From an uncultured Candidatus Bathyarchaeia archaeon (GTDB lineage Archaea; Thermoproteota; Bathyarchaeia; TCS64), in NCBI GenBank assembly GCA_964587735.1, contig CAZPMB010000001.1, positions 15,464-79,463 of the forward strand: 64,000 nt of DNA. The letters run 5' to 3'. Made by a program: the position numbers and the translations under genes. Shown piece by piece: positions 1,256 through 52,746 of this stretch. The notes beneath the pieces are model-generated. The model saw only the letters and a program-made list of their open reading frames with translations. It had not been told where the DNA came from and ran no database searches. Within the stretch, counting starts at the first letter, position 1, and the number at the start of each line of letters is the position of its first letter.

Positions 1256-1297
1256 CTAGAATCTCATCCGGACGATGATAGAAAAAGGTTGGGGAAA

Positions 1298-2713: not shown

Positions 2714-2723
2714 CAGATCCCCC

Positions 2724-5323: not shown

Positions 5324-5330
5324 CGACGTC

Positions 5331-9310: not shown

Positions 9311-9316
9311 GATGGG

Positions 9317-9952
9317 ATGATCATAACTAAGCAGAAGCCGGACGAAGAGATCAAGGAGATGATCGAGCCCTACAAGAAGCTGTTCATAGTCGGCTGTGGA
9401 ACGTGCTCGACTACCTGTCAGACAGGAGGCGAAGAGCAGGTGAAGGACATGGCGAAGAAGCTCGGGGAGAAGGTCATCGGCTCTGCCATGGTCGAGCAGC
9501 CATGCGACATCAGAATCGACAGGAAGGAACTCAAAGATCACAAAGCAGACATTAAGAAAGCCAACGCGATCCTGGTCATGTCGTGCGGCTCAGGTGTACA
9601 GACCGTTGGAGAATACTCTGGTAAGATAGTCCTTCCTGCGCTTGAAACCCTGTTCATCGGAGAGATAGAGAGGATCGGCAAGTTCTACGACAGGTGCCGG
9701 GCATGCGGGGAGTGCATCCTCGATGAGACCGGGGGGGTCTGCCCTATCACACGCTGCGCCAAGGCCATACTCAATGGGCCATGCGGCGGCCAGGTCGACG
9801 GGAAGTGCGAGGTCGGCGGCTACAAGAACGACTGTGCCTGGGTCCTCATCTGGAAGAAGCTGAAGGAGGAGGATAGGCTGGACGTCTTCACGACTTTCAG
9901 GCCACCGAGGGACAACTCGAAGAAGGTGCTGACAACAGAACTCATATTCTGA
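9317..9952 (+). CDS. metV: MetV, Cys-rich small subunit of methylene-THF reductase
   Basis: 211 aa with FIVGCGTCSTTCQTGG, RCRACGECILDETGGVCPITRCAKAILNGPCGG, as in acetogen MetV. Lies 6 nt after metF. Confidence 0.75.
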   Translation: MIITKQKPDEEIKEMIEPYKKLFIVGCGTCSTTCQTGGEEQVKDMAKKLGEKVIGSAMVEQPCDIRIDRKELKDHKADIKKANAILVMSCGSGVQTVGEYSGKIVLPALETLFIGEIERIGKFYDRCRACGECILDETGGVCPITRCAKAILNGPCGGQVDGKCEVGGYKNDCAWVLIWKKLKEEDRLDVFTTFRPPRDNSKKVLTTELIF

Positions 9953-36959: not shown

Positions 36960-37277
36960 TGTTAATCTGGACTATCAGTCATCTCGGGACTTTAAACCTT
37001 GCGCGACGAAGAAGTAGAATAACACGAACATCAATTGAATTAGTATATGGATGGCATATTCGATAAACTTCAATGCGTTAATAGCGGTGGCGCACAAAAT
37101 TGTATTTTTATGTATCAATCAAATCCATTACCCTTTTTGAGGATTTCCATGACCTATTGAGCTCTATAGATACTTAGTACAATCGTATCAGGAACTATGC
37201 AATCAGAACAATATCAAATGCGCTCTAGATTGTCTCAAAATGTAGAGATAAAGAAGGCTTTTTATGGGATAAAAAAT

Positions 37278-38657
37278 CTACTGACCACGCTTGTAACGCC
37301 TAAGGGCGGCGTCGGCCGCGACCAACAGCGGGTCGTACAGCTCCGACACGGCAGGACAGTAAGCGAGCTCTATCGTGCTGAACTCCTCGATGTCCATGCC
37401 CTTTTTAATGGCCAGTGCGATGACGTTGACTCGCCAGGCGGCCCCTTCCTCTCCAACCGCCTGCCCTCCGAGGATCCGTCCTGTCTCTGCGTCGACTACA
37501 ACCTTAACGGAGATATTCTTTGTATCAGGCATCCAGTTCGGTTTGACCTGCATGTTCGCCCTGCCTGTGATGACCTTAAAACCGTTGTTTTCTGCGATCT
37601 CTGAGTTGTATCCCGCAGAGGCGATCTCGAGCTCGCCCACGAAGGATACGAAGGTGCCCAGCCCCCCGTCGTATTTCATGTCGCCGCCAGCCGCGTTTAT
37701 TCCTGCAACGATAGCCTGCCTAAAGGCAGTTGTCGCGAGGGCTATATTCGTCGGCTTTTTATCTACCCCGCTAAAGGACATTACGCAGTCGCCGACCACA
37801 TAGACGCCTTTAACGCTCGTCTCCATCCTCTCATCGGCTATTATCGCCCCATGATCATGTGCCAGACCAGCCTTGACTGCTAGCTCAGACTCCGGATCAA
37901 CACCAACGGCCATTACCACTATGTCAGTAGGGATCTTCTCCCCTGCGATCTCAACCAACTCAACCCTATCCCTGCCATTTATCTTGTCGAACCCCTTGCC
38001 GAAGAGGATGCGAAGGCCTTTGGATTCTAGATAACTGCGTACGAGCTCGCCCATGTCGGGGTCCAAGTTCCTTGGGAACGGCGGTGGGCTTCTCTTTGTC
38101 ACCGATACATCCAGCCCTAGTTCTTTCAGGGCCACGGCGATTTCAAGCCCGATTGCGCCGCCCCCAACCACCACGGCCCTCTTGCTCCTCAATGCCGCAT
38201 CCCTGAGCTCCTTGGCGTTCTCAGGGTTCGTCACGACGTAAACTCCTCGTCCCATGAACTCTTTAGCCCCTGGGATCGGAAGGATGGTAGGTTTACTACC
38301 AGTGGCGATGATTAGTGAGTCATAGTCGAGCCAAAAAACCTCCCCTGATTCGAGGTTCTTTACCTCGACACGCCTGCCCTCTGTGTCTATCGACAAAGCT
38401 TCATGCTTTAGAAGCTTATGCAGCTGCCTTGTAACAGGGACTGTATGCTTCAGGTCCTCGAAGCTCGAGACCTTGCCCTCGATGGCGTAGGGGAGACCGC
38501 AGGGGGAGAACATATCGTAGTCGCGTTTCTCGATGATAGTGATCTCCGCGTCCCTATCAACTCTTGTCGCTGCCCTCGAGGCGTATAGTCCCCCTGTTCC
38601 TAGGCCTATGATGACGATCTTACGTGAACGATGTGATGAATCCCTCTTTACACCCAT
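37278..38657 (-). CDS. CoA-disulfide reductase / NADH oxidase family flavoprotein
   Basis: IVIIGLGTGGLYAS FAD site, single redox Cys in FSPCGLPYAIEG, and a second Rossmann VVVGGGAIGLEIA. Confidence 0.8.
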   Translation of the reverse strand: MGVKRDSSHRSRKIVIIGLGTGGLYASRAATRVDRDAEITIIEKRDYDMFSPCGLPYAIEGKVSSFEDLKHTVPVTRQLHKLLKHEALSIDTEGRRVEVKNLESGEVFWLDYDSLIIATGSKPTILPIPGAKEFMGRGVYVVTNPENAKELRDAALRSKRAVVVGGGAIGLEIAVALKELGLDVSVTKRSPPPFPRNLDPDMGELVRSYLESKGLRILFGKGFDKINGRDRVELVEIAGEKIPTDIVVMAVGVDPESELAVKAGLAHDHGAIIADERMETSVKGVYVVGDCVMSFSGVDKKPTNIALATTAFRQAIVAGINAAGGDMKYDGGLGTFVSFVGELEIASAGYNSEIAENNGFKVITGRANMQVKPNWMPDTKNISVKVVVDAETGRILGGQAVGEEGAAWRVNVIALAIKKGMDIEEFSTIELAYCPAVSELYDPLLVAADAALRRYKRGQ

Positions 38658-38817
38658 GCCCTTTAATCCCTCTTACGAAGGAGCCATACCTTTTTAATCC
38701 TTTTTATCTCTCATCTTTTTTCAATTCAGCATATAATCGTCCTTTTTTCTCCATTAACTGAATGCAGCGTAAGTGTTCCATACCAGAAATAATTCGATTC
38801 AAATTATCAGGTCAGAG

Positions 38818-39918
38818 TTAATGCACGACATCCTGTATCTTTTTCCTCAACTCCCTCCCTCTAGAGCGTTCAAGCCTTGCCTTGAATATACTAAGTGAAA
38901 CGATCTGCTGGTCGAAGGAGATCGTCATCTCGGGGGAGAGATATGTTATGTTGGCGCTTCCAAATGAATCTGGAAATCTCTTCCTGTAACCTTCTTCCCA
39001 TCTCAGATGATCGCTTATATCACGATGATTACCAAACAATAACAAATTGTATCTCTCGTGAATGACCTTAATCGCAATCGGAATGTGCGGGTCCTTTCTT
39101 ATCTCCTCCATCACCTTGTCTCTGGAGTCTTTGATCTCAAGCAGCGAGTAAGTCATAATGTAATTGGGAGGAACGAAGAAACTTGGGAAACGGCACATCG
39201 GCTCGGAGATCAACTCTTCTTTGAGTAGCAACCCTATTCTCTTCTCTATAGTCTTCCTGTGTAAACCGGTCTTTTGGCAGAGCAGCGACTGATTTGTCTT
39301 CATTCCCTCTCCCGAAACAAGGCATTTCATTATTTTTATATCGGTCTCGTCAAGAGAATGCCCATTTATAGTCAGTTCGCCCTCGTCTCTGAAATCCTTC
39401 TCAATAAGGGATATCCCTGAGCTGGGGCTGTATTTTATCATGAGCTGATTCGAAAAATAGGCGGTGCTGGAAACAAATCTCGTGTCTTTGTCGGGCACGT
39501 TATACCTTATTTTTAGAACTGAGGGTATGGAGTCCATCCATATCTGGTAGCTCGTGATGCTTTCATGGTAGATGAACAGCACCATGTTGTACTCGCCTTG
39601 CCGCGACCTGAATGCAGCGAAGATATGGGGATCCTCTTTCACCCACTTGATGAACCTCTCATCCTCCGGCAGATTCATGCGAACAACAACTAAAAGGGGA
39701 TAAACCTTGTAAAGTCCGAGAAAAGGACATATAGGACGATCAAGAATTTTTCGGTCAAAAATGAGGTCAACCTTCTTCTTTATGGTGTTTCTGTGCTTGT
39801 CTAGTAATTTGGAAAGGGCGTTGAAATTCACGCTCACGGATTCCCCTGAGACGAGGCTCTCGAGTAGAATGAGGTTTTCCTTGTCTTCGAACAGATCCGA
39901 CATGCAATAGATTTGCAT
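38818..39918 (-). CDS. Tandem-duplicated Lrp/AsnC-like regulator (two HTH+RAM-like units in one 366-aa protein)
   Basis: Unit 1 LLESLVSGESVSVNFNALSKLLDKHRNTIKKKVDLIFDRKILDRPIC... and unit 2 IMKCLVSGEGMKTNQSLLCQKTGLHRKTIEKRIGLLLKEELISEPMC..., each followed by an alpha/beta segment. Low GC. Confidence 0.45.
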   Translation of the reverse strand: MQIYCMSDLFEDKENLILLESLVSGESVSVNFNALSKLLDKHRNTIKKKVDLIFDRKILDRPICPFLGLYKVYPLLVVVRMNLPEDERFIKWVKEDPHIFAAFRSRQGEYNMVLFIYHESITSYQIWMDSIPSVLKIRYNVPDKDTRFVSSTAYFSNQLMIKYSPSSGISLIEKDFRDEGELTINGHSLDETDIKIMKCLVSGEGMKTNQSLLCQKTGLHRKTIEKRIGLLLKEELISEPMCRFPSFFVPPNYIMTYSLLEIKDSRDKVMEEIRKDPHIPIAIKVIHERYNLLLFGNHRDISDHLRWEEGYRKRFPDSFGSANITYLSPEMTISFDQQIVSLSIFKARLERSRGRELRKKIQDVVH

Positions 39919-40159
39919 TTGACAATATTTATATTTTTTCTGTTACGAAGTGCAATAAATGCTATATAAATAAATCTATATTAAGATACTATTTATATCC
40001 AAAAAATATAAATTAATTGGCAAATATGCTGTAATACAAATTGAATAAATGATTAAAAATCGTCTTTTTCTTATATATTTTGTAATTGTAATTTAATTGC
40101 TCCCCTTTGATTAACATTTGCTTGAAGAATGATGAAATGAGAAGCTGGAGGGTCTTCTG

Positions 40160-41380
40160 ATGGAAAATGTGTCAGTCGATCTGCAAATACACCAAATAGC
40201 AGTCCTTGAAGAGATACTAGAGAATATAAACATCACGGCTTTAGAGGACAGGTGGGGGCCGGAGAAGGTCATCAGGGTTTACGACTCTGACATAGGAATG
40301 GAGGGCATCCTATGCATCGACAACACCGCACTGGGACCAGGTAAGGGTGGCATGAGAATTCGAGCCGGTGTCACCCCTGTGGAGGTGTTCAATCTCGCCC
40401 GTACGATGACCTGGAAGTGTGCATTGGCCGATCTCCCATTTGGTGGGGCCAAGGGGGGGATAAACGCTGACCCGTACACAATCGACAAGATAAAGTACAT
40501 GAAGTCCTTCGCCAGGTCAATCGCCGTGTTCTGCCCAAATCAGTGGGTCTCGGCGCCGGACATGAACGTGGGCGAGAAAGAGATAGAAGCCTTCGTCGAG
40601 GAGATCGGCGACCTAAAGGCAGCCACCGGAAAGCCGGAGAAACTTGGGGGCATCCCTCATGAACTCGGCACGACCGGGTTCGGCGTCGGCGTCTCCATCG
40701 AAACAGCCCTAGAGGTCCTTTCTCAGGTTGTCCCCATAAAGGATTCACTCGCAGGCCTGAAGGTAGCGATACAGGGATTTGGCAACGTAGGATCTGAGCT
40801 CGCAAAGTACCTTGCAAACAACGGCGCGAAGATCGTAGGCGTTAGCGACTACTGGGCAGCGGTCTATAACAGCGACGGGATAGACATCTCAAAGCTGCTG
40901 AAGCACTCCTACGCAACCGATGAAGCTCATTCTGTCAAGTATTGCAAGGGGGCGACTGAAATCCCGAGGGACGACCTTCTCTACGTCGATTGCGACATCC
41001 TTGTTCCCGCCGCCATCTCTAAGGTAATCACGGCCCAAAACGCGAGCCGGATCAAGGCAAAACTAGTTGTTGAGGCGGCGAACATACCGACAACTCCGGA
41101 AGCCGAGGAGATACTATTCAAACGAGGCGTCCTTGTGATGCCCGACATGCTTGTAAACGCCGGAGGAGTAATTGGCTCGTATGTGGAGTACCTTGGAAAG
41201 AGCGCAGATGAGGCGTTCTCCATGATAGAATCAAAGATCGGTAAGAACACCAAGGAAGTGCTCGAAACCGCGATAAACAGCGGGAATATAACACTGCCGA
41301 GGGCAATAGCGATGAAGATCGCGATGGACCGCGTCTCCAGAGCCATGCGCCAACGCAGTGGCTCTAAGGTCTTTGATTGA
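40160..41380 (+). CDS. gdhA: Glu/Leu/Phe/Val-family amino-acid dehydrogenase (glutamate dehydrogenase-like)
   Basis: Catalytic Lys/Gly motif LPFGGAKGGI and NAD(P) Rossmann GFGNVGSELAKYL. Confidence 0.8.
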   Translation: MENVSVDLQIHQIAVLEEILENINITALEDRWGPEKVIRVYDSDIGMEGILCIDNTALGPGKGGMRIRAGVTPVEVFNLARTMTWKCALADLPFGGAKGGINADPYTIDKIKYMKSFARSIAVFCPNQWVSAPDMNVGEKEIEAFVEEIGDLKAATGKPEKLGGIPHELGTTGFGVGVSIETALEVLSQVVPIKDSLAGLKVAIQGFGNVGSELAKYLANNGAKIVGVSDYWAAVYNSDGIDISKLLKHSYATDEAHSVKYCKGATEIPRDDLLYVDCDILVPAAISKVITAQNASRIKAKLVVEAANIPTTPEAEEILFKRGVLVMPDMLVNAGGVIGSYVEYLGKSADEAFSMIESKIGKNTKEVLETAINSGNITLPRAIAMKIAMDRVSRAMRQRSGSKVFD

Positions 41381-41819: not shown

Positions 41820-42842
41820 ATGTTATTGGAAAAGGTTAGGATCCCCTGGGCGGTGGCAAACCTGTCAAAGGAATACAAGGTCTTCGGCCCTGTCACCCGG
41901 AGATCTTATGTGTCGTTCCAAGAAATACCCAATGGAGAAGGGCTCAATCTCGAATATACTACTACCACATTGCCCCCTAAGAAGCTCTTCCACCACGCTG
42001 AGACATTATTACATTACCATAAAGAAGATTTCTCTGCCCCAAAGTTAGAATCAGATCAACATGTCCTGCTGTTTGGCGTACACCCATGCGACCTCAATGC
42101 CATCCAAAGGATGGACAAGTTCTTCTCGAAGGACTACATTGACTCATACTATTGTAGACGACGGGAAAGGTCGGCAATAGTTGCCCTCAACTGTGGAGTA
42201 CCAGATGACAAGTGCTTCTGCGCCTCCCTAGGAACTGGCCCCGACGTAAAAGAGGGGTTCGACCTACTCTTGACGGATCTAGGAGAGGCTTACCTTGTGG
42301 AGGTTGGGACCTCAAAGGGCAAAACCATGGTCGCAAAGCTAGGACTCAAGAACGCCTCTCAGACCCATTTCCACGAGAAGGCAAGGCGACTTAGAGAGGC
42401 AAGTAAAAAGTTTAAAAAACAAATCCGGATGGAGGGACTGGCAAAACAAGCAGCCGAGAATCCTAACCACGAGGCCTGGGCACTCATTGGCGACAGAGGA
42501 GGTCTCGCCGGCTGTTTCGCGTGTCTGTCCTGCGGTAACTGCAGCATGGTCTGTCCAACGTGCTACTGCTACGAGGTCGCAGAAATCCCCGATGTCTCAC
42601 TGAAAGAGGGGATCAGGAAAAGGGAGCTCGACTCTTGCCAGCTCCTAGAGTATGCCCTGGTGGCCCTCGGCCAGAACTTCAGGCCTGATAGGAGGTACCG
42701 TACACGCCATTGGATGACTTGTAAATTCGGTGGTGCTGGCGGACAGCAGAACACGAGCTGTGTGGGATGTGGCAGGTGCATCAGGTCTTGTCCCTCCCAC
42801 ATCGACCTGACCGAGGTGGCAAGGAGCCTCTGGGGGGAGTGA
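41820..42842 (+). CDS. hydB: Group 3b NiFe hydrogenase beta subunit (sulfhydrogenase HydB / AsrA-like Fe-S subunit)
   Basis: Two [4Fe-4S] motifs CLSCGNCSMVCPTCYC and CVGCGRCIRSCP. First gene of the four-gene hyd operon. Confidence 0.75.
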   Translation: MLLEKVRIPWAVANLSKEYKVFGPVTRRSYVSFQEIPNGEGLNLEYTTTTLPPKKLFHHAETLLHYHKEDFSAPKLESDQHVLLFGVHPCDLNAIQRMDKFFSKDYIDSYYCRRRERSAIVALNCGVPDDKCFCASLGTGPDVKEGFDLLLTDLGEAYLVEVGTSKGKTMVAKLGLKNASQTHFHEKARRLREASKKFKKQIRMEGLAKQAAENPNHEAWALIGDRGGLAGCFACLSCGNCSMVCPTCYCYEVAEIPDVSLKEGIRKRELDSCQLLEYALVALGQNFRPDRRYRTRHWMTCKFGGAGGQQNTSCVGCGRCIRSCPSHIDLTEVARSLWGE

Positions 42843-42843
42843 T

Positions 42844-43689
42844 ATGGAGAATCCGTTGATGCCGAGGAAGGCTATCATCAAGAAGATCGAGATAGAGACC
42901 TACGACTCCAAGACTTACACGTTCGAGTTCGAAGACGGAGGCCCGAAGGGATTGGATTTCAACCCCGGTCAGTTCGTTATGTTATCCATATTAGGGTATG
43001 GAGAGGCTGCAATATCCATAGCCCATGACCCCGATGACAAGTCAGGGCTCGACCTGACGATTAGGAACGTTGGGAGCGTTACTGACGCCCTGTCCCGCAT
43101 GAAGGTCGGGGATCTGGTCGGCATAAGGGGGCCTTACGGCAACGGCTGGCCAATAGATGACGCTGTAGGAAAACGAATACTATTGATCAGCGGTGGTTGC
43201 GGATGCGGCACCATCACGCCCATCATCCTGGCTCACAGGAACGACCAGTCTAGGTTCAAGTTCGTGGAGGTCCTCCATGGCGCGAGGACCCCCAACGACA
43301 TCATCTACAGGAAACACTACGAGGAGATCTGGCCTAAAATCCCTAACTGCAACGTGCTGCTATCATCCGACACGGTGCCACCGGGACAGACGTGGAAACA
43401 CAAGGTCGGCTTCGTCTTATCGCTGTTAAAGGATATGAAGTCCACACCTGAGGACACACTGGCCTTCATGTGCGGGCCAGAGGTCATGATGAAGTTCACC
43501 GCCCTCGACATGTTGAAAATGGGATTCTCCGAGGACCAGATCTACTGCTCCATGGAGAGGAGGATGAGGTGCGGCTTAGGGCTCTGCGGCCACTGCCAGC
43601 TTGGTTCAAAATACGTCTGCAAGGATGGACCGGTCTTTTCATATGCGGAGCTGCAGGAGCTCCCGGATCACATTATAAGGGGGAGCTGA
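42844..43689 (+). CDS. hydG: Group 3b NiFe hydrogenase gamma subunit (FAD/NAD(P)-binding, [2Fe-2S])
   Basis: FNR-like fold (FNPGQFVMLS...GGCGCGTITP) and C-terminal CSMERRMRCGLGLCGHCQ cluster motif. Confidence 0.8.
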   Translation: MENPLMPRKAIIKKIEIETYDSKTYTFEFEDGGPKGLDFNPGQFVMLSILGYGEAAISIAHDPDDKSGLDLTIRNVGSVTDALSRMKVGDLVGIRGPYGNGWPIDDAVGKRILLISGGCGCGTITPIILAHRNDQSRFKFVEVLHGARTPNDIIYRKHYEEIWPKIPNCNVLLSSDTVPPGQTWKHKVGFVLSLLKDMKSTPEDTLAFMCGPEVMMKFTALDMLKMGFSEDQIYCSMERRMRCGLGLCGHCQLGSKYVCKDGPVFSYAELQELPDHIIRGS

Positions 43690-43690
43690 T

Positions 43691-44446
43691 ATGTCGAAGC
43701 TGAAGTGTGGTTTCTTCAAGTTCACGGGCTGCGCGGGCTGCCAGATGGAAGTCCTTAGGGCAGAGGATGTCCTTCCTCAGATGCTAGAGCACGTTGAGAT
43801 AGCTTATTGGCCCATGGTGACCAGCAAGGGCTGGGAGGTGGATCTAGACGTTGCCTTCATAGAGGGCTCTGTCTCGACGCCAAGGGAAATTAGGGAGATC
43901 AAAGAGATCCGTGAGCGAACCAAGGTCTTAGTTGCCTTTGGCGATTGCGCGGTCACGGGCTGCATCCCCTCGATCAGGAACTTCATGACCCAGAGAGAGG
44001 CTGAGAAGGCAGTCTATCTGCATCCTTCTTGGATTGAATCGATCGGATTGAGGGGCATCTATGAGTACGTTGATGTGGAGGTCAGCCTGCCCGGGTGCCC
44101 GCCCCACAGAGACACCATCCTAGAGGTTGTAAAGGGGGCCGCACTCAAAAGGAGGCCCTACCTCAGGCGCCACGCTGTCTGCATCGAGTGCAAGCTAAAG
44201 GACAACGGCTGCCTCCTCACCGAGGAGAAACGACCGTGCATGGGACCTGTGACAAACGCTGGTTGCGGGGCAATCTGTCCAAGCTATAATCGCGAGTGCG
44301 AGGGGTGTTATGGTCCAATGAGCGCCCCAAACGCTGAATCCCTAGCAAAGATCCTTCTGGAGACGGGTATCACAGAGGAGGACGTGAAGAGGAAGTTCCG
44401 GAAGTATGCCGGTTGGACTCCAGATTTCATTAGGGAGGCGATGTAG
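43691..44446 (+). CDS. hydD: NiFe hydrogenase small subunit (group 3, delta)
   Basis: FTGCAGCQMEV...GDCAVTGC...LPGCPP proximal/medial cluster ligands. Confidence 0.85.
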   Translation: MSKLKCGFFKFTGCAGCQMEVLRAEDVLPQMLEHVEIAYWPMVTSKGWEVDLDVAFIEGSVSTPREIREIKEIRERTKVLVAFGDCAVTGCIPSIRNFMTQREAEKAVYLHPSWIESIGLRGIYEYVDVEVSLPGCPPHRDTILEVVKGAALKRRPYLRRHAVCIECKLKDNGCLLTEEKRPCMGPVTNAGCGAICPSYNRECEGCYGPMSAPNAESLAKILLETGITEEDVKRKFRKYAGWTPDFIREAM

Positions 44447-44447
44447 A

Positions 44448-45734
44448 ATGAAAGAGCGCGAGATAAGAGTCGAGTACGTGTCCAGGGTCGAAGGTCAAGG
44501 AGCAGTTGACCTTTTCGTCTCAAAGGATGGGGAGCTCATAGACGCCAAGGTCCGCGTTTATGAGCCCACTCGCTTCTTCGAGGCTCTTATGGTTGGGAGA
44601 AAATACGACGAACTCATGGAGCTTGCAGCTAGGATCTGCGGCATCTGCCCTGTCTCCCACGAGATAACGGCTCTTCGGGCCGTTGAGGAGGCCATTGGCC
44701 TAGAGGTAAGCGAGGCTACCAAGAGACTAAGAAAGCTAATGGCGATGAGCGCCTTCATCAGCAGCCACGTACTCAGCATCTATTTCCTCACCCTACCTGA
44801 TTACTTCGGATATAACGACCTCATCGAGGTGGCGAAGGAGAACCCTGAACTCTTGAAACGGGGCTTTGAACTTAAGAAACTAGGCAATGACCTGACAGAG
44901 CTGATCGGTGGTAGATCCGTCCACCCCGTCACTGCGGTCGTCGGCAGGTTCACCAACGCGATAAAGAAGCGGGATGCTGAAACGATGAGGAAGCGCTTTA
45001 TCGAGGCTAAAAGTGATGCTCTGGAGACTGTTGACCTCTTCAAGGGGCTGGAGATACCGAAGTTCACGAGGAAATGCGAGCATATGGCAATCAGCAGTCC
45101 CGAGGAATATGCCATCAACGAGGGAATGCTCGCCTCCACGGAAGGGATCAAAGTTCCTCAGAGGGAGTACCGACAGTTTGTCGAGGAAAACCAGGTACAA
45201 CACTCGAACGCCAAGCACTCAAACGTGAAGGGTCGAACATCCTATCTCGTTGGGCCACTCGCAAGGGTCAACATCAACTTAGATCAGCTGTCCCCGGATG
45301 CGAGAAGAGCGGCTAAGAGCGTGGGGCTTAATGTCCCGAACTACAGCCCATTCAAATCGCCTATCGCCAGGGCTGTAGAGGTCGTCCACTGCATCGACGA
45401 ATGCGCAGAGATCCTTGAAACCATGCCATATAGCGAGGAGCCCAGCCTGATCAAGTTGAGGGCAGGTGACGGCTATGCCATCACGGAGGCGCCTAGGGGC
45501 ATCAATTACCACCATTATTCACTGAATAGGGGTGGCATCGTAACAAAGGCGGACATTGCGCCACCAACCTGCCAGAACTACAGGAACATGGAGATGGACC
45601 TCATAGAGCTCGTTCCCACCATCCTAGACCTACAGGACGATGAGATCGCTCACAGGTGCCAGATGCTCATACGGGCGTACGACCCCTGCATCTCATGCTC
45701 GGTCCACTCCATTAAGATTCACAAGGTAAAATAA
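44448..45734 (+). CDS. hydA: NiFe hydrogenase large subunit (group 3b, alpha)
   Basis: N-terminal RICGICPVSH (RxCGxCxxxH) and C-terminal DPCISCSVH (DPCxxCxxH) Ni-Fe ligands. ATG at 44448 is 1 nt after the hydD stop. Confidence 0.9.
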   Translation: MKEREIRVEYVSRVEGQGAVDLFVSKDGELIDAKVRVYEPTRFFEALMVGRKYDELMELAARICGICPVSHEITALRAVEEAIGLEVSEATKRLRKLMAMSAFISSHVLSIYFLTLPDYFGYNDLIEVAKENPELLKRGFELKKLGNDLTELIGGRSVHPVTAVVGRFTNAIKKRDAETMRKRFIEAKSDALETVDLFKGLEIPKFTRKCEHMAISSPEEYAINEGMLASTEGIKVPQREYRQFVEENQVQHSNAKHSNVKGRTSYLVGPLARVNINLDQLSPDARRAAKSVGLNVPNYSPFKSPIARAVEVVHCIDECAEILETMPYSEEPSLIKLRAGDGYAITEAPRGINYHHYSLNRGGIVTKADIAPPTCQNYRNMEMDLIELVPTILDLQDDEIAHRCQMLIRAYDPCISCSVHSIKIHKVK

Positions 45735-46378
45735 ATATGGGGCTGCGTTTGTGGGTCATGTCGTCAAGATCACCTAAAAGCTCAGCGATGCCTTCCCTGA
45801 AGTTTAAACGTCTCAAAAATGAAGTTCTAATAAAATCCATTTATCGTACGTGTGCAGACGGTTAGGTAATTAGTACGAAATGATTTTAGGGTTAACAGTG
45901 TAGAATCATTCCATTTCAAATATTATATTCCAACATCTGCATTAACACTGCTCCAAGGCATTGCGAGAAACAGGGTCAGCGCGGGCCGACACGAGAGGAA
46001 GTCCCTCGGATTGCCTTTGAGACGGAGCGCTAAGGCTTTGGAGGCAATTAGACTTTCACTTCAAGGGGCCAGGGGACCGGTGAAATCCTTTATACCTTCT
46101 AGAAGGAATAAGGAGTTTTCCGCATGAGAACGGTCTTCACCGAGAGGGACAGGAGGCTTCTGGGGCAACATAAATTCAACAAGGCTATAGCAGAACCCTA
46201 TCATGTTACCCCGCGTCGTTGAATGGTCATAAGGGGTTCAATTTTATTAATTTCAATGGGAAGTCTTTTTGATGTTTGATGATCATTGACGTCAGTGGAC
46301 CGATTAAGCCTCTGTGCAACTCAGCTTTTTTTTTGGAATAAAACCGTCCATGAATTGATGTAATCTGAAGGTGTGGGA

Positions 46379-49084
46379 TTAAGAAACTCTTACTGTCTTC
46401 TCCACCCGAACTGCACACACCTTGAACTCGGGTATCTTAGATACGGGGTCAAGCGCAGCATTGGTTAACAGGTTGGCGGCGGCCTCCGAGAAATGGAACG
46501 GTATGAAGATTGAGCCCTCTGGTGAGCGCTCCGTAATATTGGCCTTAGCCACAATCACGCCCCTTCTAGACTCGACCCTTACCTCTTCCCCGTCCTCCAC
46601 GCCTAAACGCTTCGCGTCGTTAGGGTTAATCTCAACCAAGCACTCCGGGATTAAAGTGTCAAGGACCTCGGACCTTCTGGTCATTGTCCCTGTGTGAAAG
46701 TGCTGGAGCAGTCTCCCTGTCGTGAGCAAGAGGGGGTAATCTTCGTCGGGGTACTCCGCCGGTGAGATATACTCAACGGCGTGAAAACGCCCCTTCCCGC
46801 GGGCGAACTGATCCCTGTACATGAACGCCGTTCCAGGGTGATTCATGTTAAGGCAAGGCCATTGAAGGCCACTAGTCTCGAGCCTGTGGTGGTGAACCCC
46901 TCCGTATATAGGAGTCAAAGCTGCGATTTCATCCATTATATCAGATGAGGAGCCATAACTCATCTTGTAGCCCATCCGGCCAGCGAGTTTACAGACGATC
47001 TCCCAGTCGGGTAAGCTTGTGCCTATGGGCTCTATTGCCTTCCTGACGATCTGAATGCGACGTGCCGTATTCGTGAATGTCCCGCCTTTCTCTGCGAATG
47101 ATGTGGCTGGCAGCACGACATCAGCTATCTGTGCAGTCTCTGAAAGGAAGATGTCTTGGACAACGAGGAACTCCAGTTTACCGAGCGCCTCCCTGACATG
47201 GTTCAGATCGGGGTCGCTCATCAAAGGGTTCTCCCCTATCACATAGAGCCCCTTCAGGCCGCCATTGTAAGCAGCATTGATCATCTCCACAACGGTAAGG
47301 CCTGGCTCACCGCTGAGGGAAACACCCCAAGCCTCCTCAAACTTGATCCTTGTAGCCTCGTTGTCAATCGACTGATAACCAGGATATATGTTAGGGAGCG
47401 CGCCCATGTCACAGGCTCCCTGAACGTTGTTCTGCCCTCGCAGCGGGTTGACCCCTGTAGACTCCCGGCCCACATTCCCCGTGAGCATGGCGAGGTTCGC
47501 CATCGAAAGCACGTTGTCCGTACCCGTTATGTGCTGCGTGATGCCCATGCTGAAGACTATGGAGGCCTTTTCAGCGCCTCCGAAGAGGATCGCCGCCTCC
47601 TTGATCGCATCCTCGGGTACCCCAGTGATCTCCTCGACTAGGTCTGGCGTGTATCTCTCAACCGTTCTTTTGAATTCCTCGAAGTTCTCGCAACGACTTC
47701 GTATAAACTCCTCGTCGTGCAGGCCTTCATCAATGATGACATTCATCAGGCCGTTCAAAAGTGCTACATCAGTGCCGCCCCTCTGCCTCAGCCAAATAGT
47801 GGAGTGGTCGACGAGGTCTATCTTCCGGGGATCTGCGACGATAAGCTTCGCTCCCCTCTCGATGATGGCCTGTTTTATGTACATGGCGATGACCGGGTGG
47901 TTCTCGGTGGTATTGGAGCCTGTGACGAAGATGACATCTGCGCCCAGCAGTTCCCTGATGGAGTTCGTCATGGCGCCTGAACCGAAGGCCTTCGACAACC
48001 CGGCGACCGTGGGCGCGTGACAGAGCCTGGCGCAGTGGTCTACGTTATTATTGCCAAAACACATACGCACAAATTTCTGAAAGATGTAGTTATCCTCGTT
48101 AGTACACTTGGCCGATGCGAGGCCCGCAAGAGCGCTGTTGCCATATACTCTTTTCAGTTCCTGGAATTTTGAGGCGACCAGATCCAATGCCTCATCCCAT
48201 GTGGCTGGCTCGAGCTTGCCTTCTCTTTTTATCAGAGGGGTAGTAAGCCGGTCCTGGGAGTTAACCCAGTCGTAGCCGAAACGTCCCTTGACGCATAGGC
48301 TCCCCCTATTCTCCACACCGCCTTCTGCGCCCCTCACCTTGACTATCCGCCCGTCTTTGACATACAGCTCCACAGTGCAGCCCACGCCGCAGTAAGGGCA
48401 AGTGGTATCCACTCGCTTCAGCTCCCACCACCTCCCCATGAATCTAGACTGCTTCTCTATCAAGGCGCCAGTGGGGCACACCTGCAGGCACTCTCCGCAG
48501 TAGGTGCAGTCTGTATTGATTAGCGGCTGGCTCATACCGGACGCGATCCGGACATCGCTCCCGCGCTCCACGAAACCCAGGATATGCTCAACCCTCTCAT
48601 CTTGGCAGGCAGAAACACACCTGCCACAGAGAATGCATTTACTGGGGTCGCGTATGATAGCCGGGCTTGAACTGTCAGCAGGATCATTGGGTTCAACGAT
48701 CTCGAAGCTCAGACTGTCCATATCGATCTCCATATCGTATGCTAGGTCCTGGAGATCGCAGTTACCGTTGCTCTCACACGTGAGGCAGTGGATCTTGTGC
48801 CTCGTGAGAAGCAGTTCCACCACCATCTTGCGGGCCTGTCTGACCCTTTCGCTGTCGGTACGAACGATCATGCCTTTCCTGATGGGTGTAGCGCACGATG
48901 CCTCCAATCGCGGGGCTCCCTCTATCTCGACGACGCAGACGCGGCAGGCCCCCGTTATAGGAAGTCGGGGGTGGTGGCAGAGTGTTGGGATGTGTACGCC
49001 ATTCTCCTTGGCAGCCTCAAGTATGGTCTGACCGGACTTACCTGAGACCCTTCTCCCGTCGATTGTCAATTCAATTTCGCTCAT
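46379..49084 (-). CDS. fdhA: Formate dehydrogenase catalytic subunit, FdsA-type (NuoG-like [2Fe-2S]/[4Fe-4S] N-terminus + Mo/W-bisPGD domain), Cys-type
   Basis: N-terminal 2Fe-2S ferredoxin (CHHPRLPITGACRVC), CTYCGECLQVC / CPYCGVGC, and active-site VDHCARLCHAPTVAGL (Cys codon, not TGA). The ATG at 49084 has a GGTGG Shine-Dalgarno. Confidence 0.9.
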   Translation of the reverse strand: MSEIELTIDGRRVSGKSGQTILEAAKENGVHIPTLCHHPRLPITGACRVCVVEIEGAPRLEASCATPIRKGMIVRTDSERVRQARKMVVELLLTRHKIHCLTCESNGNCDLQDLAYDMEIDMDSLSFEIVEPNDPADSSSPAIIRDPSKCILCGRCVSACQDERVEHILGFVERGSDVRIASGMSQPLINTDCTYCGECLQVCPTGALIEKQSRFMGRWWELKRVDTTCPYCGVGCTVELYVKDGRIVKVRGAEGGVENRGSLCVKGRFGYDWVNSQDRLTTPLIKREGKLEPATWDEALDLVASKFQELKRVYGNSALAGLASAKCTNEDNYIFQKFVRMCFGNNNVDHCARLCHAPTVAGLSKAFGSGAMTNSIRELLGADVIFVTGSNTTENHPVIAMYIKQAIIERGAKLIVADPRKIDLVDHSTIWLRQRGGTDVALLNGLMNVIIDEGLHDEEFIRSRCENFEEFKRTVERYTPDLVEEITGVPEDAIKEAAILFGGAEKASIVFSMGITQHITGTDNVLSMANLAMLTGNVGRESTGVNPLRGQNNVQGACDMGALPNIYPGYQSIDNEATRIKFEEAWGVSLSGEPGLTVVEMINAAYNGGLKGLYVIGENPLMSDPDLNHVREALGKLEFLVVQDIFLSETAQIADVVLPATSFAEKGGTFTNTARRIQIVRKAIEPIGTSLPDWEIVCKLAGRMGYKMSYGSSSDIMDEIAALTPIYGGVHHHRLETSGLQWPCLNMNHPGTAFMYRDQFARGKGRFHAVEYISPAEYPDEDYPLLLTTGRLLQHFHTGTMTRRSEVLDTLIPECLVEINPNDAKRLGVEDGEEVRVESRRGVIVAKANITERSPEGSIFIPFHFSEAAANLLTNAALDPVSKIPEFKVCAVRVEKTVRVS

Positions 49085-49093
49085 TGAAACCAC

Positions 49094-52000
49094 CTATTCA
49101 TTCAGCTTCCTGTCACAGTGGAGGCACCTTTTCGCCTCCTCGATGACGTCATTCAGGTTATAACCTTGCTCGACCTCCCTGAAGCCCAGGGCCCTCTCCT
49201 CTGGAGGGAGGAGGAGGGCTTCTACTCTTCTCTGCTCAACTATTTCCGCTTCTAAATCGAATGGAATTTCGTCGATCCTTGCCTGTTTCCTAGCCACCTC
49301 GACCAGCTTCCCGTTACCGCCCAAGAACTTGTCGATGGCCAAAGCAGCCTTTATTCCATCGGCTATTGCCTCGATAACCGTCGCAGGTCCCCTAACAACA
49401 TCTCCTCCGGCGAAGACGCCCGCCTTACTGGTCTCCATGGTGTCCTCGTCCACGATGAGGGTTCCTAATCTGGTCGTAGAGATCTCTCCCTCGCCGGTAA
49501 AGAAGGAGAGATCAGTAGTCTGACCAACTGCGACAATGACCGAGTCGACGTCCACCGTAAACTCTTGACCTTCGACAGGCACGGGCCTTCTTCGACCGCT
49601 GCTGTCAAATTCACCTGGCCTGAGCTGAGAGCACAACATCTGTGCTACTTTCCCACCTTCACCTAGGATTTTCGTCGGCACGGCCATGAATCTGAACCTG
49701 ACGCCTTCATTCTCAGCCTCGGTGACCTCCTCGTCGGTAGCTGTCATGTCCTCCCTCTCTCTTCGATAGTACACGGTGACTTCTTTTCCCCCGAGCCGAA
49801 TCGCCGACCTGGCGGAATCGATGGCAGTGCTGCCTCCACCGATGACTGCAACTTTTTCGCCAAGCTCGACCTTCTTCCCGAGGTTGATATCCATCAAGAA
49901 CCGCACACCCTCGTGGACTCCCTCAAGGCCTTCGCCCTGAATCCCAAGAGCCCTGCCACTCTGTGCACCTACGGCCAGATAGACAACCTTGAACCCCTGT
50001 CCAAAAAGGTCGTTGAAAGTGAAGTCCTCCCCCAGACGCTGGTTTGTCTTGATCTCGACATCAAGTTCGCGTATGGCATCGATCTCGGCATTTAGGATGT
50101 TCTTGGGAAGCCGATAATTGGGTATGCAAACGGCCATCATTCCCCCGGCCACCGGCAACGCCTCGAAGACAGTGGCTTCGTAGCCCATCATGGCCAGGTG
50201 GTAGGCGGCAGTCAGCCCAGATGGTCCCGAGCCCACGACGGCCACCTTCACACCCCTCGTACTCCTTTGATAGAGCTTCGGAGCGGCACTCACGTAGTCC
50301 GAGACGAATCTCTTGAGCAGCCGCAGGGCTACTGGGTCATCGGTTTCACCTCGCCTGCACTTGAACTCGCATGGGTGGTTGCAGATGCGTCCACAGACAG
50401 AGGGGAAGGGGTTCCTCTCCCTGATCAGCGATAGGGCCTCCCCGAACCGGCCCTCTGAGATCAGAGCCACGTACCCATGGGTATCCAGGCCTGCGGGGCA
50501 GGCGTTCTGGCAGGGGGAATCGAACAGGGCTTCGCAGACCCCTGCAGGGCACTTCTTGTACTTAATGTGGGCCTCGTACTCGTCCCTGAAGTACCTGATG
50601 GTGGAAAGGACCGGGTTAGGGCCCGTGCGCCCCAGGCCACAGAGAGCTGTGTCGACTATGATATGAGCCAATTCCTCGAGATGCTCGATGTCTCCCTCCC
50701 TCCCCTCACCCGTCACAATCCTCTCCAAGATATCCAGCATTCTCTGGAAGCCCTCTCGACAAGGGGTGCACTTCCCACAGGACTCGCTCAGGCAGAACTC
50801 TAGGAAGTACCGGGCGATGTCGACCATGCAGGTGTCCTCATCCATGACAACAAGACCACCAGAGCCCATAATAGCCCCTAGTTGGTCCAGTGTCTCGTAA
50901 TCCGCAGGAACGCTAAGCTGTTCCTTCGGTATACAGCCCCCCGAAGGGCCTCCGCTCTGTACCGCCTTGAACCTCTTTCCTCCCTTGCATCCCCCGCCGA
51001 TGTCGTAGATGATCTTACCCATCTCCGTCCCGATGGGCACCTCGATCAATCCGGTGTTATTTATATCGCCGACAAGAGAGTAAACCTTCGTCCCTGCGCT
51101 CCGTTCTGTCCCTATTATTCTATACGCTTCTGCTCCTTTCCGAATGATCAACGGAACGTTTGCTAGGGTCTCCACGTTGTTCAGAGCGGTCGGCTTACCC
51201 CAAAGCCCCTTCTCGGATGGGAAAGGCGGTCTCGGTCTCGGGACTGCCCTCTTACCCTCAATTGAGGCAAGCAGAGCGGTCTCCTCTCCACAGACGAAGG
51301 CGCCTGCCCCCATCCTCATTTCGATGTCGAAATCGAATCCTGATCTAAAGATGTCTTTTCCAAGCAAGCCACATTCCCTCGCCCGCTCGATGGCCAGCTT
51401 TAACCTGCTAACAGCGAGGGGATACTCCGCTCTGATGTACACATATCCTTTGTTGGCGCCTATGGCGTAGCCTGCGATTGCCATACCCTCGATGACGCTG
51501 TGCGGGTCACCCTCTATGAGGCTCCTATTCATGAAAGCCCCCGGATCGCCCTCATCACAATTAGCCACTATGTATTTGGTATTCCCGCCAGCTATTCGCG
51601 TCAGGTGCCATTTGAAGCCGGTTGGGAAACCTGCGCCACCACGTCCCCTGAGCAGCGCAGCCCTAACCTCTTTAATGACATCCTCAGGCGTCATCGAGGT
51701 AAGAACCCTTGACAACGCCTGGTAACCATCTTTTTTAATGTATTCCTCTATCCTCGTCGGATCTATGTTGCCGCAGTTTCTAAGGATGTTTTTTGTCTGG
51801 TGTTTGAAGAAGGGGATATCGTCCATTGTTGTAAATGCATCTTTACTTACAGGGTCTACGTAGAGAAGGCGCCCAACAACCTCCTTATTGACTATCGTCT
51901 TTGAGACAATTTCAGGGACATCATCCGGTTTCACGTGAAAATAGCAGAATCCTTGGGGGTAGATCGTGACCCTCGGCCCATTTTCGCAGAAACCAGCGCA

Positions 52001-52204
52001 TCCTGTCTCCTTGATTCCCGAGACTAGCATGTTTAAACCCCGTTCCTCAAGCTCCTCTCTAAGTGTGGCAACGATTTTATCGGCGCCTTGAGACAGGCAG
52101 CCCGTTCCCAAACACACGGCGATGAACGGTTCGTTGGGATCGCTCTGGGCAATTATTTCCTTTCTGAGTCTTTCTAGATCAGAGGGCGAGTTTAAGTGAT
52201 CCAA
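49094..52204 (-). CDS. FDH beta-like subunit: fusion of thioredoxin-like [2Fe-2S] + NuoF-like (FMN/NAD) + 2x[4Fe-4S] + GltD-like FAD/NADPH oxidoreductase (1036 aa)
   Basis: AVCLGTGCLSQGADKI...CAGFCENGP; NuoF FMN motif GRGGAGFPTGFKWH; CDEGDPGAF; then CGRICNHPCEFKCRRG; VAVVGSGPSGLTAAYHL; VAVIGGGSTAIDSARSA. TTG start with a GAGGAAG Shine-Dalgarno. Confidence 0.85.
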   Translation of the reverse strand: MDHLNSPSDLERLRKEIIAQSDPNEPFIAVCLGTGCLSQGADKIVATLREELEERGLNMLVSGIKETGCAGFCENGPRVTIYPQGFCYFHVKPDDVPEIVSKTIVNKEVVGRLLYVDPVSKDAFTTMDDIPFFKHQTKNILRNCGNIDPTRIEEYIKKDGYQALSRVLTSMTPEDVIKEVRAALLRGRGGAGFPTGFKWHLTRIAGGNTKYIVANCDEGDPGAFMNRSLIEGDPHSVIEGMAIAGYAIGANKGYVYIRAEYPLAVSRLKLAIERARECGLLGKDIFRSGFDFDIEMRMGAGAFVCGEETALLASIEGKRAVPRPRPPFPSEKGLWGKPTALNNVETLANVPLIIRKGAEAYRIIGTERSAGTKVYSLVGDINNTGLIEVPIGTEMGKIIYDIGGGCKGGKRFKAVQSGGPSGGCIPKEQLSVPADYETLDQLGAIMGSGGLVVMDEDTCMVDIARYFLEFCLSESCGKCTPCREGFQRMLDILERIVTGEGREGDIEHLEELAHIIVDTALCGLGRTGPNPVLSTIRYFRDEYEAHIKYKKCPAGVCEALFDSPCQNACPAGLDTHGYVALISEGRFGEALSLIRERNPFPSVCGRICNHPCEFKCRRGETDDPVALRLLKRFVSDYVSAAPKLYQRSTRGVKVAVVGSGPSGLTAAYHLAMMGYEATVFEALPVAGGMMAVCIPNYRLPKNILNAEIDAIRELDVEIKTNQRLGEDFTFNDLFGQGFKVVYLAVGAQSGRALGIQGEGLEGVHEGVRFLMDINLGKKVELGEKVAVIGGGSTAIDSARSAIRLGGKEVTVYYRREREDMTATDEEVTEAENEGVRFRFMAVPTKILGEGGKVAQMLCSQLRPGEFDSSGRRRPVPVEGQEFTVDVDSVIVAVGQTTDLSFFTGEGEISTTRLGTLIVDEDTMETSKAGVFAGGDVVRGPATVIEAIADGIKAALAIDKFLGGNGKLVEVARKQARIDEIPFDLEAEIVEQRRVEALLLPPEERALGFREVEQGYNLNDVIEEAKRCLHCDRKLNE

Positions 52205-52220
52205 TGATCATCTTCCTCGG

Positions 52221-52697
52221 CTAGCTGTATCTGGATAGTATCTCAGGAATTTTGGTAACGGTTACATGGCTGTACAGGTCCTTGTCAAGCCTGACGACAG
52301 GCGCTAGGGCGCATGCCCCCATGCAACGGATGGATTCGAGTGAAAACCTCATGTCTTCTGTCGTCTCCCCTTCCTCGATCTGCAATATATCCTTTACATG
52401 CATCATTATCCTCTTGCCCCCTCGGACGTAGCACGATGTACCCAGACACACGCTGATAGAATGCCTGCCCTTGGGCACCATAGTAAAGAGATTGTAAAAG
52501 GTCACAACCCCGTATACTCTTGTGAGGGGCACGTTGAGCACCTTCGCAATCTCAGCTTGTACATCCTTGGGAAGATAACCAAAAACCTCTTGAGTCTGAT
52601 GTAAAACCTCGATAAGGGACTCCGGTTTACCCCTGTGTTTGGCAATAATATCTTTTAGTTTCGCTGCATTTTCCTCATTAGCCAGTATCGATTCCAT
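52221..52697 (-). CDS. NuoE/HoxE/FdsG-like thioredoxin-fold [2Fe-2S] ferredoxin subunit
   Basis: 158 aa with CLGTSCYVRGG...CMGACALAPVV. First gene of the fds-like operon. Confidence 0.8.
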   Translation of the reverse strand: MESILANEENAAKLKDIIAKHRGKPESLIEVLHQTQEVFGYLPKDVQAEIAKVLNVPLTRVYGVVTFYNLFTMVPKGRHSISVCLGTSCYVRGGKRIMMHVKDILQIEEGETTEDMRFSLESIRCMGACALAPVVRLDKDLYSHVTVTKIPEILSRYS

Positions 52698-52746
52698 GTT
52701 GAAACAGCTCCTTTTCAGATGTCTAGAGGATATATTTATACGCTTG

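Follow-up and report, generated by a model that had tools for sequence, protein, structure and literature searches.

The group 3b [NiFe]-hydrogenases SH I and SH II (sulfhydrogenases I and II) of Pyrococcus furiosus and Thermococcus kodakarensis are cytoplasmic enzymes with a beta-gamma-delta-alpha gene set, an AsrA-like beta subunit and an FNR-like gamma subunit. In Thermococcus onnurineus, the SH I genes (TON_0534-0537; PMC4463584) directly abut the fdh3 cluster (TON_0538-0543), which encodes a purified, NADP-dependent formate dehydrogenase (FDH) that has a GltD-like subunit, Fdh3B, and also reduces ferredoxin in vitro (PMC8965080); a homologous Fdh3 cluster is present in T. kodakarensis (PMC12016516). 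We analysed a related pairing in a stretch of 64,000 nucleotides from an uncultured Candidatus Bathyarchaeia archaeon (contig CAZPMB010000001.1, positions 15,464 to 79,463; hereafter the window), where a four-gene operon assigned to a group 3b hydrogenase converges on a three-gene operon for a soluble FDH, one subunit of which carries a GltD-like module fused to a NuoF-like protein.

The electron-transfer part of this FDH has to be compared with two kinds of flavin-dependent enzymes. The Bfu family, represented by HydABC and NiFe-HydABCSL, is defined by an absolutely conserved cofactor content of the BfuB and BfuC subunits (BfuBC; PMC9304861). The Nfn-Bfu transhydrogenases StnABC and NfnABC combine a BfuBC-type core with a NuoG/Fdh-like A subunit, into which a permuted NfnL/GltD-like module is inserted (StnC or NfnA). 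NfnL-like domains have also been noted in FDHs and in FeFe hydrogenases (PMC12018979), and a Stn-like cluster adjoins an FDH in Dehalobacteriia, an arrangement described as 'of unclear significance' (PMC10327494).

The two enzymes and their assignment

The listing of open reading frames (ORFs), together with family profile searches, placed seven long ORFs in two convergent operons between positions 41811 and 52697 of the window (Table 1). Since the ORFs are long and their family matches have E-values of 1e-25 to 1e-275, a chance pattern is ruled out for all seven. The genes lie where a preliminary description of this DNA had put them: the ends at 45734, 46379 and 52697 are exact, and 41820 is the first ATG of hydB, whose ORF opens at a TTG at 41811. 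For hydA (mechanical ORF 44406-45734), the start at 44448, one base past the hydD stop, follows a 428-residue database protein (P0152) that is 100% identical. The fdhA ORF spans 46379-49093 and its likely start is the ATG at 49084, which gives a protein of 901 residues, as called in L081.

By its subunit architecture and by the bit-score ranking of its solved relatives, the hydrogenase is assigned to group 3b, as had been proposed in the preliminary description. Pfam and NCBIfam profiles identify the products of the four contiguous genes as a set of four subunits, among them an AsrA-like beta subunit with Fe-S clusters and an FNR-like gamma subunit for FAD and NAD(P). The beta subunit HydB (18 Cys) matches best, among NCBIfam models, sulfhyd_ShyB (226 bits), followed by sulfhyd_HydB (188 bits); the gamma subunit HydG, which comprises FAD, NAD(P)(H) and [2Fe-2S] cluster-binding domains, matches PRK08345 (209 bits) and ShyC/HydG (about 172 bits); and the small subunit HydD matches sulfhyd_HydD (168 bits) and starts with MSKLKCGFFK, with no RRxF motif. 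In the large subunit HydA (428 residues), both Ni-Fe ligand motifs, L1 and L2, are intact (RICGICPVSH, residue 62; DPCISCSVH, residue 412), as in SH I and SH II. Its best matches in the PDB are indeed the alpha subunits of sulfhydrogenase I from Pyrococcus/Thermococcus (9nez_D and 5yxy_A, about 240 bits), ahead of MvhA (176 bits), the Bfu-type NiFe enzyme (168 bits), FrhA (142 bits), Hox (139 bits), group 1 enzymes (at most 85 bits) and Mbh (47 bits). With a score of 264 bits, far under the Thermococcales equivalog cutoffs of 880 or 700 bits, the enzyme stands far from SH I and SH II within group 3b and is orthologous to neither; its nearest named HydA homologues belong to Candidatus Bathyarchaeota/Bathyarchaeia (64-67% identity).

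FdhA, judging from its intact catalytic motifs, is a genuine FDH catalytic subunit of the FdsA-like kind. It scores 913 bits against TIGR01591 (cutoff 666) and has the active-site pair Cys358-His359 (CARLCHAP) as well as the arginine in PLRGQNNVQG; since CARLCHAP puts Cys358 before His359, the enzyme is of the Cys rather than the selenocysteine type. The NuoG-like N-terminus of the protein carries a [2Fe-2S] cluster, a His-ligated [4Fe-4S] cluster and two further [4Fe-4S] clusters, to which the Molybdop_Fe4S4 cluster is added. Its best PDB matches are 7vw6_A (814 bits), from the tungsten-dependent FDH of Methylobacterium, and 6tg9_A (773 bits), the FdsA subunit of Rhodobacter. The operon thus shares with the NAD+-dependent FDHs of the FdsGBA/FdhAB type (Rhodobacter capsulatus, Cupriavidus necator, Methylobacterium extorquens) the G-B-A gene order, the architecture of FdhA and the soluble character. 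The likeness to FdsGBA claimed in the preliminary description stops there: the B and G subunits of the window are not of the FdsB/FdsG kind, as detailed below, and FdsB itself lacks an NADP(H) module.

Both enzymes look cytoplasmic, in line with the preliminary description. Indeed, the seven proteins contain no predicted transmembrane helix (no 19-residue window is hydrophobic enough, the maximum Kyte-Doolittle value being 1.86), and none of their N-termini bears the RRxF/L motif of a twin-arginine (Tat) signal.

The fused BfuB-GltD subunit

The NuoE/NuoF module of the FDH belongs to the Bfu lineage and not to that of FdsG/FdsB, because its scores against Bfu subunits are about twice those against FdsG and FdsB. 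The NuoF half of the fused protein (residues 28-562) aligns with positions 8-541 of the 597-residue HydB chain of the bifurcating NiFe-HydABCSL (7t2r_B) at 740 bits, and scores 640-713 bits against the HydB, StnB and NfnB subunits of other bifurcating enzymes, compared with just 386-401 bits against FdsB. Likewise, the matches of the NuoE-like protein to HydC reach 158 bits (7q4v_C) and 149 bits (7t2r_C), compared with 90 bits for that to FdsG.

All the ligands of the core Bfu cofactors (C1, FMN, B1, the N-terminal B5 [2Fe-2S] cluster and the B2/zinc site) are present. The fused protein starts with a thioredoxin (Trx)-like [2Fe-2S] domain (Cys31/36/69/73), continues with the FMN/NAD(H) site (GRGGAGFPTG loop) and the [4Fe-4S] cluster beside FMN (Cys476/479/482/522), and reaches the hinge motif His546...Cys552-PAGV-Cys557, which corresponds to the B2/zinc site of the solved enzymes. 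The C-terminal domain of BfuB (about 55 residues), which houses clusters B3 and B4, is by contrast absent: the alignment breaks off right after the hinge, at residue 541 of the 597-residue chain, and no CxxCxxCxxxCP motif is found past the hinge of the window protein. In its place stand 474 residues (563-1036) that form an NfnL/GltD-like module. This half matches 9bov_A (424 bits), 9n5u_A (411 bits) and 8oh5_C (350 bits), i.e. modules embedded in NfnA/StnC, ahead of NfnL (5jca_L, 301 bits), and its topology is permuted as in StnC and NfnA, as it begins with PC..ACP and ends with the last cluster ligands, RCLHC. Eight cysteines (Cys565/569/604/608/612/616 and Cys1027/1030 of RCLHC) provide for two [4Fe-4S] clusters, GSGPSG at residue 658 is the FAD motif, and GGGSTA...YYRRERED marks the NADP(H) site; the cluster and FAD ligands and Y813-R814-R815 are invariant across 42 fused homologues.

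In a confident AlphaFold2 model of the fused protein (pLDDT 89, pTM 0.85), one half fits BfuB chains (target TM-score 0.85-0.95) and the other fits the NfnL-like domain of NfnA/StnC; no solved chain spans both halves, the maximum query TM-score being 0.53. R698, the equivalent of Arg201 in NfnL and Arg239 in StnC, is conserved. An attempt to call the FAD bifurcating or non-bifurcating from this arginine was abandoned: the residue is kept in both classes, so that sequence does not distinguish between the two.

The window subunit therefore shares with the Bfu family the N-terminal [2Fe-2S] domain, the FMN loop, B1, the B2/zinc hinge and C1, but lacks B3/B4, the published route to ferredoxin, and has an NfnL-like FAD/NADP(H) module instead; judged by its cofactor ligands, it breaks the criterion of an absolutely conserved BfuBC cofactor content (PMC9304861). 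With StnABC/NfnABC it has in common the permuted NfnL/GltD-like module, the BfuBC-type core and a NuoG/Fdh-like A subunit. The module, however, is C-terminal on B in the window and inserted within A in StnC/NfnA, and the pterin domain of the window A subunit is that of an intact FDH (Cys-His-Arg), whereas the pterin domain of StnC is inactive (PMC10482914). The nucleotide link that the preliminary description had drawn for both enzymes, from the FNR-like HydG and from the NuoF and GltD modules of the fusion, is borne out by these assignments. The electron-bifurcating mode that it had also envisaged is doubtful in the usual, ferredoxin-dependent sense, the B3/B4 arm being replaced by the GltD-like module.

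The fused architecture is widespread in bacteria and apparently uncharacterized. More than 600 relatives came up when the fused protein was scanned against GTDB, each species being represented by a single genome; the best 80, which we looked at, are nearly all bacterial (46-63% identity). NuoF and GltD are fused at 46 loci: 26 of them have a partner with an [FeFe]-hydrogenase H domain, seven have a true FdhA, at 56-62% identity (Thermodesulfobacteriota, Desulfomonilia, Dehalococcoidia, Desulfobacteraceae and others), and a few have NiFe or CCG-domain partners. The cultured carriers include Zhaonella formicivorans (L092) and Moorella sp. Hama-1 (L093), where the fused subunit lies in a HydC-kinase-HydB-HydA operon. 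These [FeFe]-hydrogenase operons (L092:3257-12785 and L093:2733-12783) also contain a second HydA-like protein of the sensory type, histidine-kinase-like ATPase genes, and genes with DRTGG and PHP domains. The hinge motif was located by regular expression in 53 homologues. Past it, a ferredoxin motif occurs in none of the 33 long-tailed (fused) proteins and in one or two copies in 15 of the 17 complete short-tailed ones.

In a rough neighbour-joining tree of the NuoF cores, the window clade groups with L088, then with a fused FDH of Thermodesulfobacteriota, nested among bacteria, a placement consistent with, though no proof of, acquisition from bacteria; fused and unfused forms interleave in this tree, several of the 'unfused' labels being truncated contigs. 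L088 (9530-14841), a locus of archaeal-looking context, encodes a fused subunit 62% identical to that of the window beside a 275-residue Fe-S protein resembling the N-terminus of NuoG and a 288-residue CCG-domain (HdrB-like) protein; no FDH or hydrogenase is found in this interval, and these two proteins would give the fused module a catalytic partner of a third kind. Fused proteins are labelled NuoF by PGAP, and NCBIfam holds no fusion-specific model. We found no description of a NuoF/BfuB-GltD fusion in the full-text literature, a search whose coverage leaves out most subscription journals; what comes nearest are the NfnL-like domains noted in FDHs and FeFe hydrogenases (PMC12018979) and the Stn-like cluster beside an FDH in Dehalobacteriia (PMC10327494).

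Conservation of the junction and its surroundings

Protein and metagenome searches yielded eight close contigs, window included, with FdhA at least 83% identical, and identical proteins occur in several sediment metagenomes; sequence of the window is found in SRR8539650 and in JGI 3300031876 and 3300031806. Six of the eight have the convergent junction: the window, L087, L086 (the same contig as L090/L094), L089, L095 and L098. Among these, the outer flanks differ in three arrangements: L095 and L098 share the window's side made of the CoA-disulfide-reductase (CoADR)-like gene, an unassigned gene, the glutamate dehydrogenase (GDH) gene and hydB; L086 and L089 lack GDH and have other genes beyond nuoE; and L087 has a different GDH. 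An HdrA/HdrB/HdrC set lies about 4 kb from hydB in L089/L090.

Divergence from the window is mosaic. L086 is 91% identical in FdhA and 71% in HydA, L087 83% and 77%, respectively. Within the fused protein, residues 1-150 (window 51755-52204) are 37-48% identical to L086, L089 and L097 and 71-83% to L087, whereas L086, L089 and L097 match most of the remainder at 85-98%; the GltD half ranks the relatives in the order opposite to that given by the first 150 residues, and all variants retain the four N-terminal cysteines. This pattern points to recombination within the FDH operon among related lineages. Because the junction is present in most relatives despite this mosaicism and absent from others, it appears fairly stable yet not obligatory in a recombining lineage.

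L096 and L097 (FdhA 87% identical) match the gene order of the window throughout on the nuoE side (PurF, racemase, TATA-binding protein, signal peptidase); after fdhA they have a different gene set, and no hydrogenase is present. In L097 (11293-18654), and also in L096, the genes behind fdhA, on its strand, encode two HdrA-like proteins, MvhD (FlpD, 3e-55), a 1013-residue double HdrA and an HdrC-like protein. This set suggests a coupling of formate to Hdr reminiscent of the Fdh-MvhD-Hdr complexes of methanogens. A HydB-like match after fdhA in L033 was discarded, as it is a lone Fer4_22 protein with no hydrogenase operon.

The spacer between the operons measures 644 bp in the window and 190-255 bp in the relatives. 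Its conservation is limited to the approximately 175 bp nearest fdhA (spacer positions 463-637; 78% identity to L086/L089 by blastn), and the extra 460 bp or so beside hydA have no homologue among the fetched loci. A conserved RNA or small gene in the spacer was considered and dropped: ORFs do not exceed 63 residues, the consensus fold is weak (-8.7 kcal/mol) and there is no Rfam or tRNA match. On the other side of the FDH operon, TATAAATATA, which resembles a TATA box, is a possible archaeal promoter.

The window carries archaeal markers (TATA-binding protein, archaeal-type signal peptidase, NucS, TrmB), among them the tetraether lipid (glycerol dialkyl glycerol tetraether, GDGT) synthase Tes at 25279-26886 (674 bits, NCBIfam cutoff 450). 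Together with the cdhABCDE genes and the Bathyarchaeota/Bathyarchaeia affinity of HydA, these markers make a host within Bathyarchaeia probable. The Pfam match of the Tes gene to 'HMPTM zinc ribbon + radical SAM' could be misread as evidence for methanopterin biosynthesis and hence for a tetrahydromethanopterin (H4MPT) pathway; that reading was rejected, the gene being Tes. An archaeal five-subunit CO dehydrogenase/acetyl-CoA synthase (CODH/ACS) cluster occupies 467-8221 (cooC-like, cdhE, cdhD, cdhC, cdhB, cdhA) and is directly followed, in divergent orientation, by a MetF/MetV pair (8363-9952); its G+C content is 59-60%, compared with about 47-55% elsewhere in the window. Upstream of hydB, positions 35928-41380 hold a run of NAD(P)-dependent genes. 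GDH has the same position in L095 and L098 (88% identity), CoADR-like copies 68-83% identical occur in L089, L095 and L098, and the CoADR-like gene, the gene for the 366-residue protein and the hydrogenase are syntenic in these three contigs.

Table 1. Features of the hydrogenase-FDH locus and its upstream neighbours (window coordinates)
Feature	Position	Strand	Basis or remark
hydB, group 3b hydrogenase beta subunit (AsrA-like, Fe-S)	41820-42842	+	Pfam Fer4_22, 2.8e-25
hydG, gamma subunit, FNR-like diaphorase	42844-43689	+	FAD_binding_6, NAD_binding_1, DHODB_Fe-S_bind
hydD, [NiFe]-hydrogenase small subunit (delta)	43691-44446	+	Oxidored_q6, 2e-26
hydA, [NiFe] large subunit, 428 aa	44448-45734	+	L1/L2 motifs
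Convergent intergenic spacer hydA/fdhA, 644 bp	45735-46378	.	Between operon ends
fdhA, catalytic Mo/W-bis(pyranopterin guanine dinucleotide) FDH subunit	46379-49084	-	TIGR01591, Pfam domain series
Fusion protein, 1036 aa	49094-52204	-	Trx-like 2Fe-2S + NuoF + Fer4_20/Pyr_redox_2
Fusion, BfuB-like half, residues 1-562	50519-52204	-	7t2r_B alignment
Fusion, NfnL/GltD-like half, residues 563-1036	49097-50518	-	9bov_A alignment, Fer4_20 + Pyr_redox_2
BfuC/NuoE-like [2Fe-2S] subunit (nuoE), 158 aa, 4 Cys	52221-52697	-	2Fe-2S_thioredx, 2.2e-51
TATA-box-like TATAAATATA, 34-43 nt upstream of nuoE ATG	52731-52740	-	Read from sequence
Glutamate dehydrogenase, directly upstream of hydB	40160-41380	+	ELFV_dehydrog; GdhA_Arch 238 bits, under its cutoff
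CoA-disulfide-reductase/NSR-like NAD(P)H flavoprotein	37278-38657	-	TIGR03385 303 bits, under cutoff 579
2,4-Diaminopentanoate-dehydrogenase-like gene	35928-36959		NAD(P)-dependent
366-aa protein, no family match	38818-39918		Conserved in relatives

Function of the pairing

We propose, with a rough probability of 0.6, that the locus encodes two separate soluble enzymes that trade reducing equivalents by way of the NAD(P)(H) pool, H2 and formate being vented or taken up. In the hydrogenase, the FNR-like gamma subunit would link H2/H+ to NAD(P)(H). In the FDH, electrons from FdhA would pass along the NuoG-like Fe-S chain to the FMN of the BfuB-like subunit, held by the BfuC-like subunit; with two predicted nicotinamide sites, for NAD(H) at the FMN and for NADP(H) at the FAD, and no recognizable ferredoxin arm, the enzyme would couple formate/CO2 to both NAD(H) and NADP(H). 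Coupling at the level of the pool is favoured because both enzymes are soluble and have nicotinamide sites, and because NAD(P)-dependent genes lie upstream of hydB. Since GDH and the other NAD(P)-dependent genes stand just upstream, the NAD(P)H could stem from amino-acid fermentation, with GDH as one possible source, and would be vented through the 3b hydrogenase (as H2) or through the FDH (as formate), with uptake of either product when it is available. The nucleotide specificities, the direction of flux and the coupling through the pool are predictions of this proposal.

The two nicotinamide sites of the FDH may operate independently, as a built-in transhydrogenase, or as the two branches of a bifurcation or confurcation that does without ferredoxin. 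The most far-reaching version, which we put forward tentatively and hold to be doubtful, is that the fused subunit represents a ferredoxin-independent branch of the Bfu family, in which the low-potential arm of the FMN/B1/C1 'flavobicluster' is hard-wired through the NfnL-like clusters to FAD/NADP(H). If this were true, such enzymes would distribute the electrons of formate (or of H2 in the bacterial homologues) over NAD+ and NADP+; operating in the opposite direction, they would draw on NADH and NADPH together to make formate or H2 at the micromolar/pascal levels of syntrophic sediments, without spending reduced ferredoxin. With in vivo potentials of about -280 mV for NADH and -380 mV for NADPH (PMC9304861), the mean of the two lies, by our estimate, near that of the CO2/formate couple at micromolar formate, so that a ferredoxin-free confurcation is thermodynamically reasonable.

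Several observations weigh against the coupling of the two enzymes through the pool. The junction is absent in two of the eight close contigs (L096 and L097), where Hdr/MvhD genes follow fdhA; the hydrogenase stands alone in the Bathyarchaeota genome L091 (HydA 67% identical); the seven bacterial loci that encode both the fused subunit and a true FdhA all lack a 3b hydrogenase within 10 kb; the operons are convergent, each with its own putative promoter, so that hyd and fdh would not be co-transcribed; and the window contains no hyp, fdhD, molybdenum cofactor biosynthesis or formate transporter gene. Moreover, which nucleotides HydG and the FMN site accept is itself a prediction, and docking of ferredoxin on the NfnL-like clusters, as happens in NfnSL, may still occur. 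The preliminary description, which looked to co-occurrence of the two operons in related genomes, thus holds for most close relatives and fails in L096, L097 and L091. Most of these points, along with the phylogenetic closeness of all positive cases (FdhA at least 83% identical), would also be accounted for if the enzymes were unrelated and their adjacency were synteny inherited in a narrow lineage after insertion of the FDH operon. We consider such a chance neighbourhood possible, though unlikely, as the junction persists across the three outer-flank arrangements and despite the mosaicism seen in the FdhA and HydA identities of L086 and L087, and as both enzymes are predicted to work on the same cofactor pool. 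A like pairing, besides, arose separately in Thermococcales, where the electron-transfer module is non-homologous (PMC4463584, PMC8965080). That precedent, to which the preliminary description had pointed, is indeed documented for T. onnurineus (PMC4463584, PMC8965080, PMC12016516). T. onnurineus Fdh3 resembles the window enzyme in being a soluble FDH of the Cys type, in having a GltD-like component that binds NADP, and in being encoded directly beside a group 3b operon. By contrast, it relies on a separate GltD-like Fdh3B and on the Fe-S proteins Fdh3G1/G2, with no NuoE/NuoF; its FdhA has the active-site Cys at residue 133, which leaves no long NuoG-like N-terminus; and its operon includes a formate transporter, whereas that of the window comprises three genes only (nuoE, the nuoF-gltD fusion and fdhA). 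Because the electron-transfer parts are non-homologous, the resemblance is convergent, the arrangement having arisen twice; the Thermococcales case strengthens the functional reading of the pairing, as circumstantial evidence.

The remaining alternatives concern the role of the FDH. It could have kept canonical bifurcation, passing formate electrons to NAD+ and to a ferredoxin that docks either at the NfnL-like clusters or between the domains of BfuC and BfuB, with the NADP(H) site as a fourth substrate site of a combined Fdh/Nfn enzyme. All ligands of the BfuBC core (B1, B5, the B2/zinc motif, C1, the FMN loop) are conserved, in NfnSL ferredoxin is reached through the pair of [4Fe-4S] clusters in the GltD-like subunit (PMC10482914), and T. 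onnurineus Fdh3 reduces ferredoxin in vitro (PMC8965080); we nevertheless judge this improbable, given that the window fusion misses B3/B4 together with the C-terminal domain and thereby departs from the absolutely conserved BfuBC cofactor content (PMC9304861). Less probable still is the supply of formate to the methyl branch of a Wood-Ljungdahl pathway, from H2 via NAD(P)H, as suggested in the preliminary description. The window does encode CODH/ACS and MetF/MetV, but its cdhABCDE genes are of the archaeal type, and the archaeal variant activates CO2 as formyl-methanofuran with ferredoxin, not free formate with ATP (PMC7886697). Neither fhs (formate-tetrahydrofolate ligase) nor fwd is present in the window, and CO2 reduction by NAD(P)H is uphill unless formate is held at micromolar levels. 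We attach equally little weight to the idea that the FDH mainly serves Hdr-type modules, in a formate-driven HdrA/MvhD chemistry to which the hydrogenase would be incidental: the same-strand Hdr/MvhD genes behind fdhA in L097, the HdrA/HdrB/HdrC set near hydB in L089/L090 and the CCG-domain partner in L088 speak for it, whereas the annotated ORFs of the window include no Hdr, CCG or FlpD gene, and the hydrogenase, not Hdr, occupies that position in six of the eight close relatives.

The Bfu family is currently defined by fixed BfuBC cofactors and by ferredoxin as an obligatory substrate. A subunit that keeps the bifurcating core and swaps the ferredoxin arm for an NADP(H) module would offer a direct test of whether this core needs ferredoxin, and such a test is practical because cultured bacteria carry the [FeFe]-hydrogenase version. 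The occurrence of a 3b hydrogenase beside an NADP-linked FDH both in Thermococcales and in the lineage of the window is circumstantial evidence for an H2/NADPH/formate functional unit. For Bathyarchaeia, which are among the most abundant archaea of sediments, the locus suggests a ferredoxin-sparing way to import or export reducing power as H2 or formate, a proposed route that bears on their role in interspecies electron transfer.

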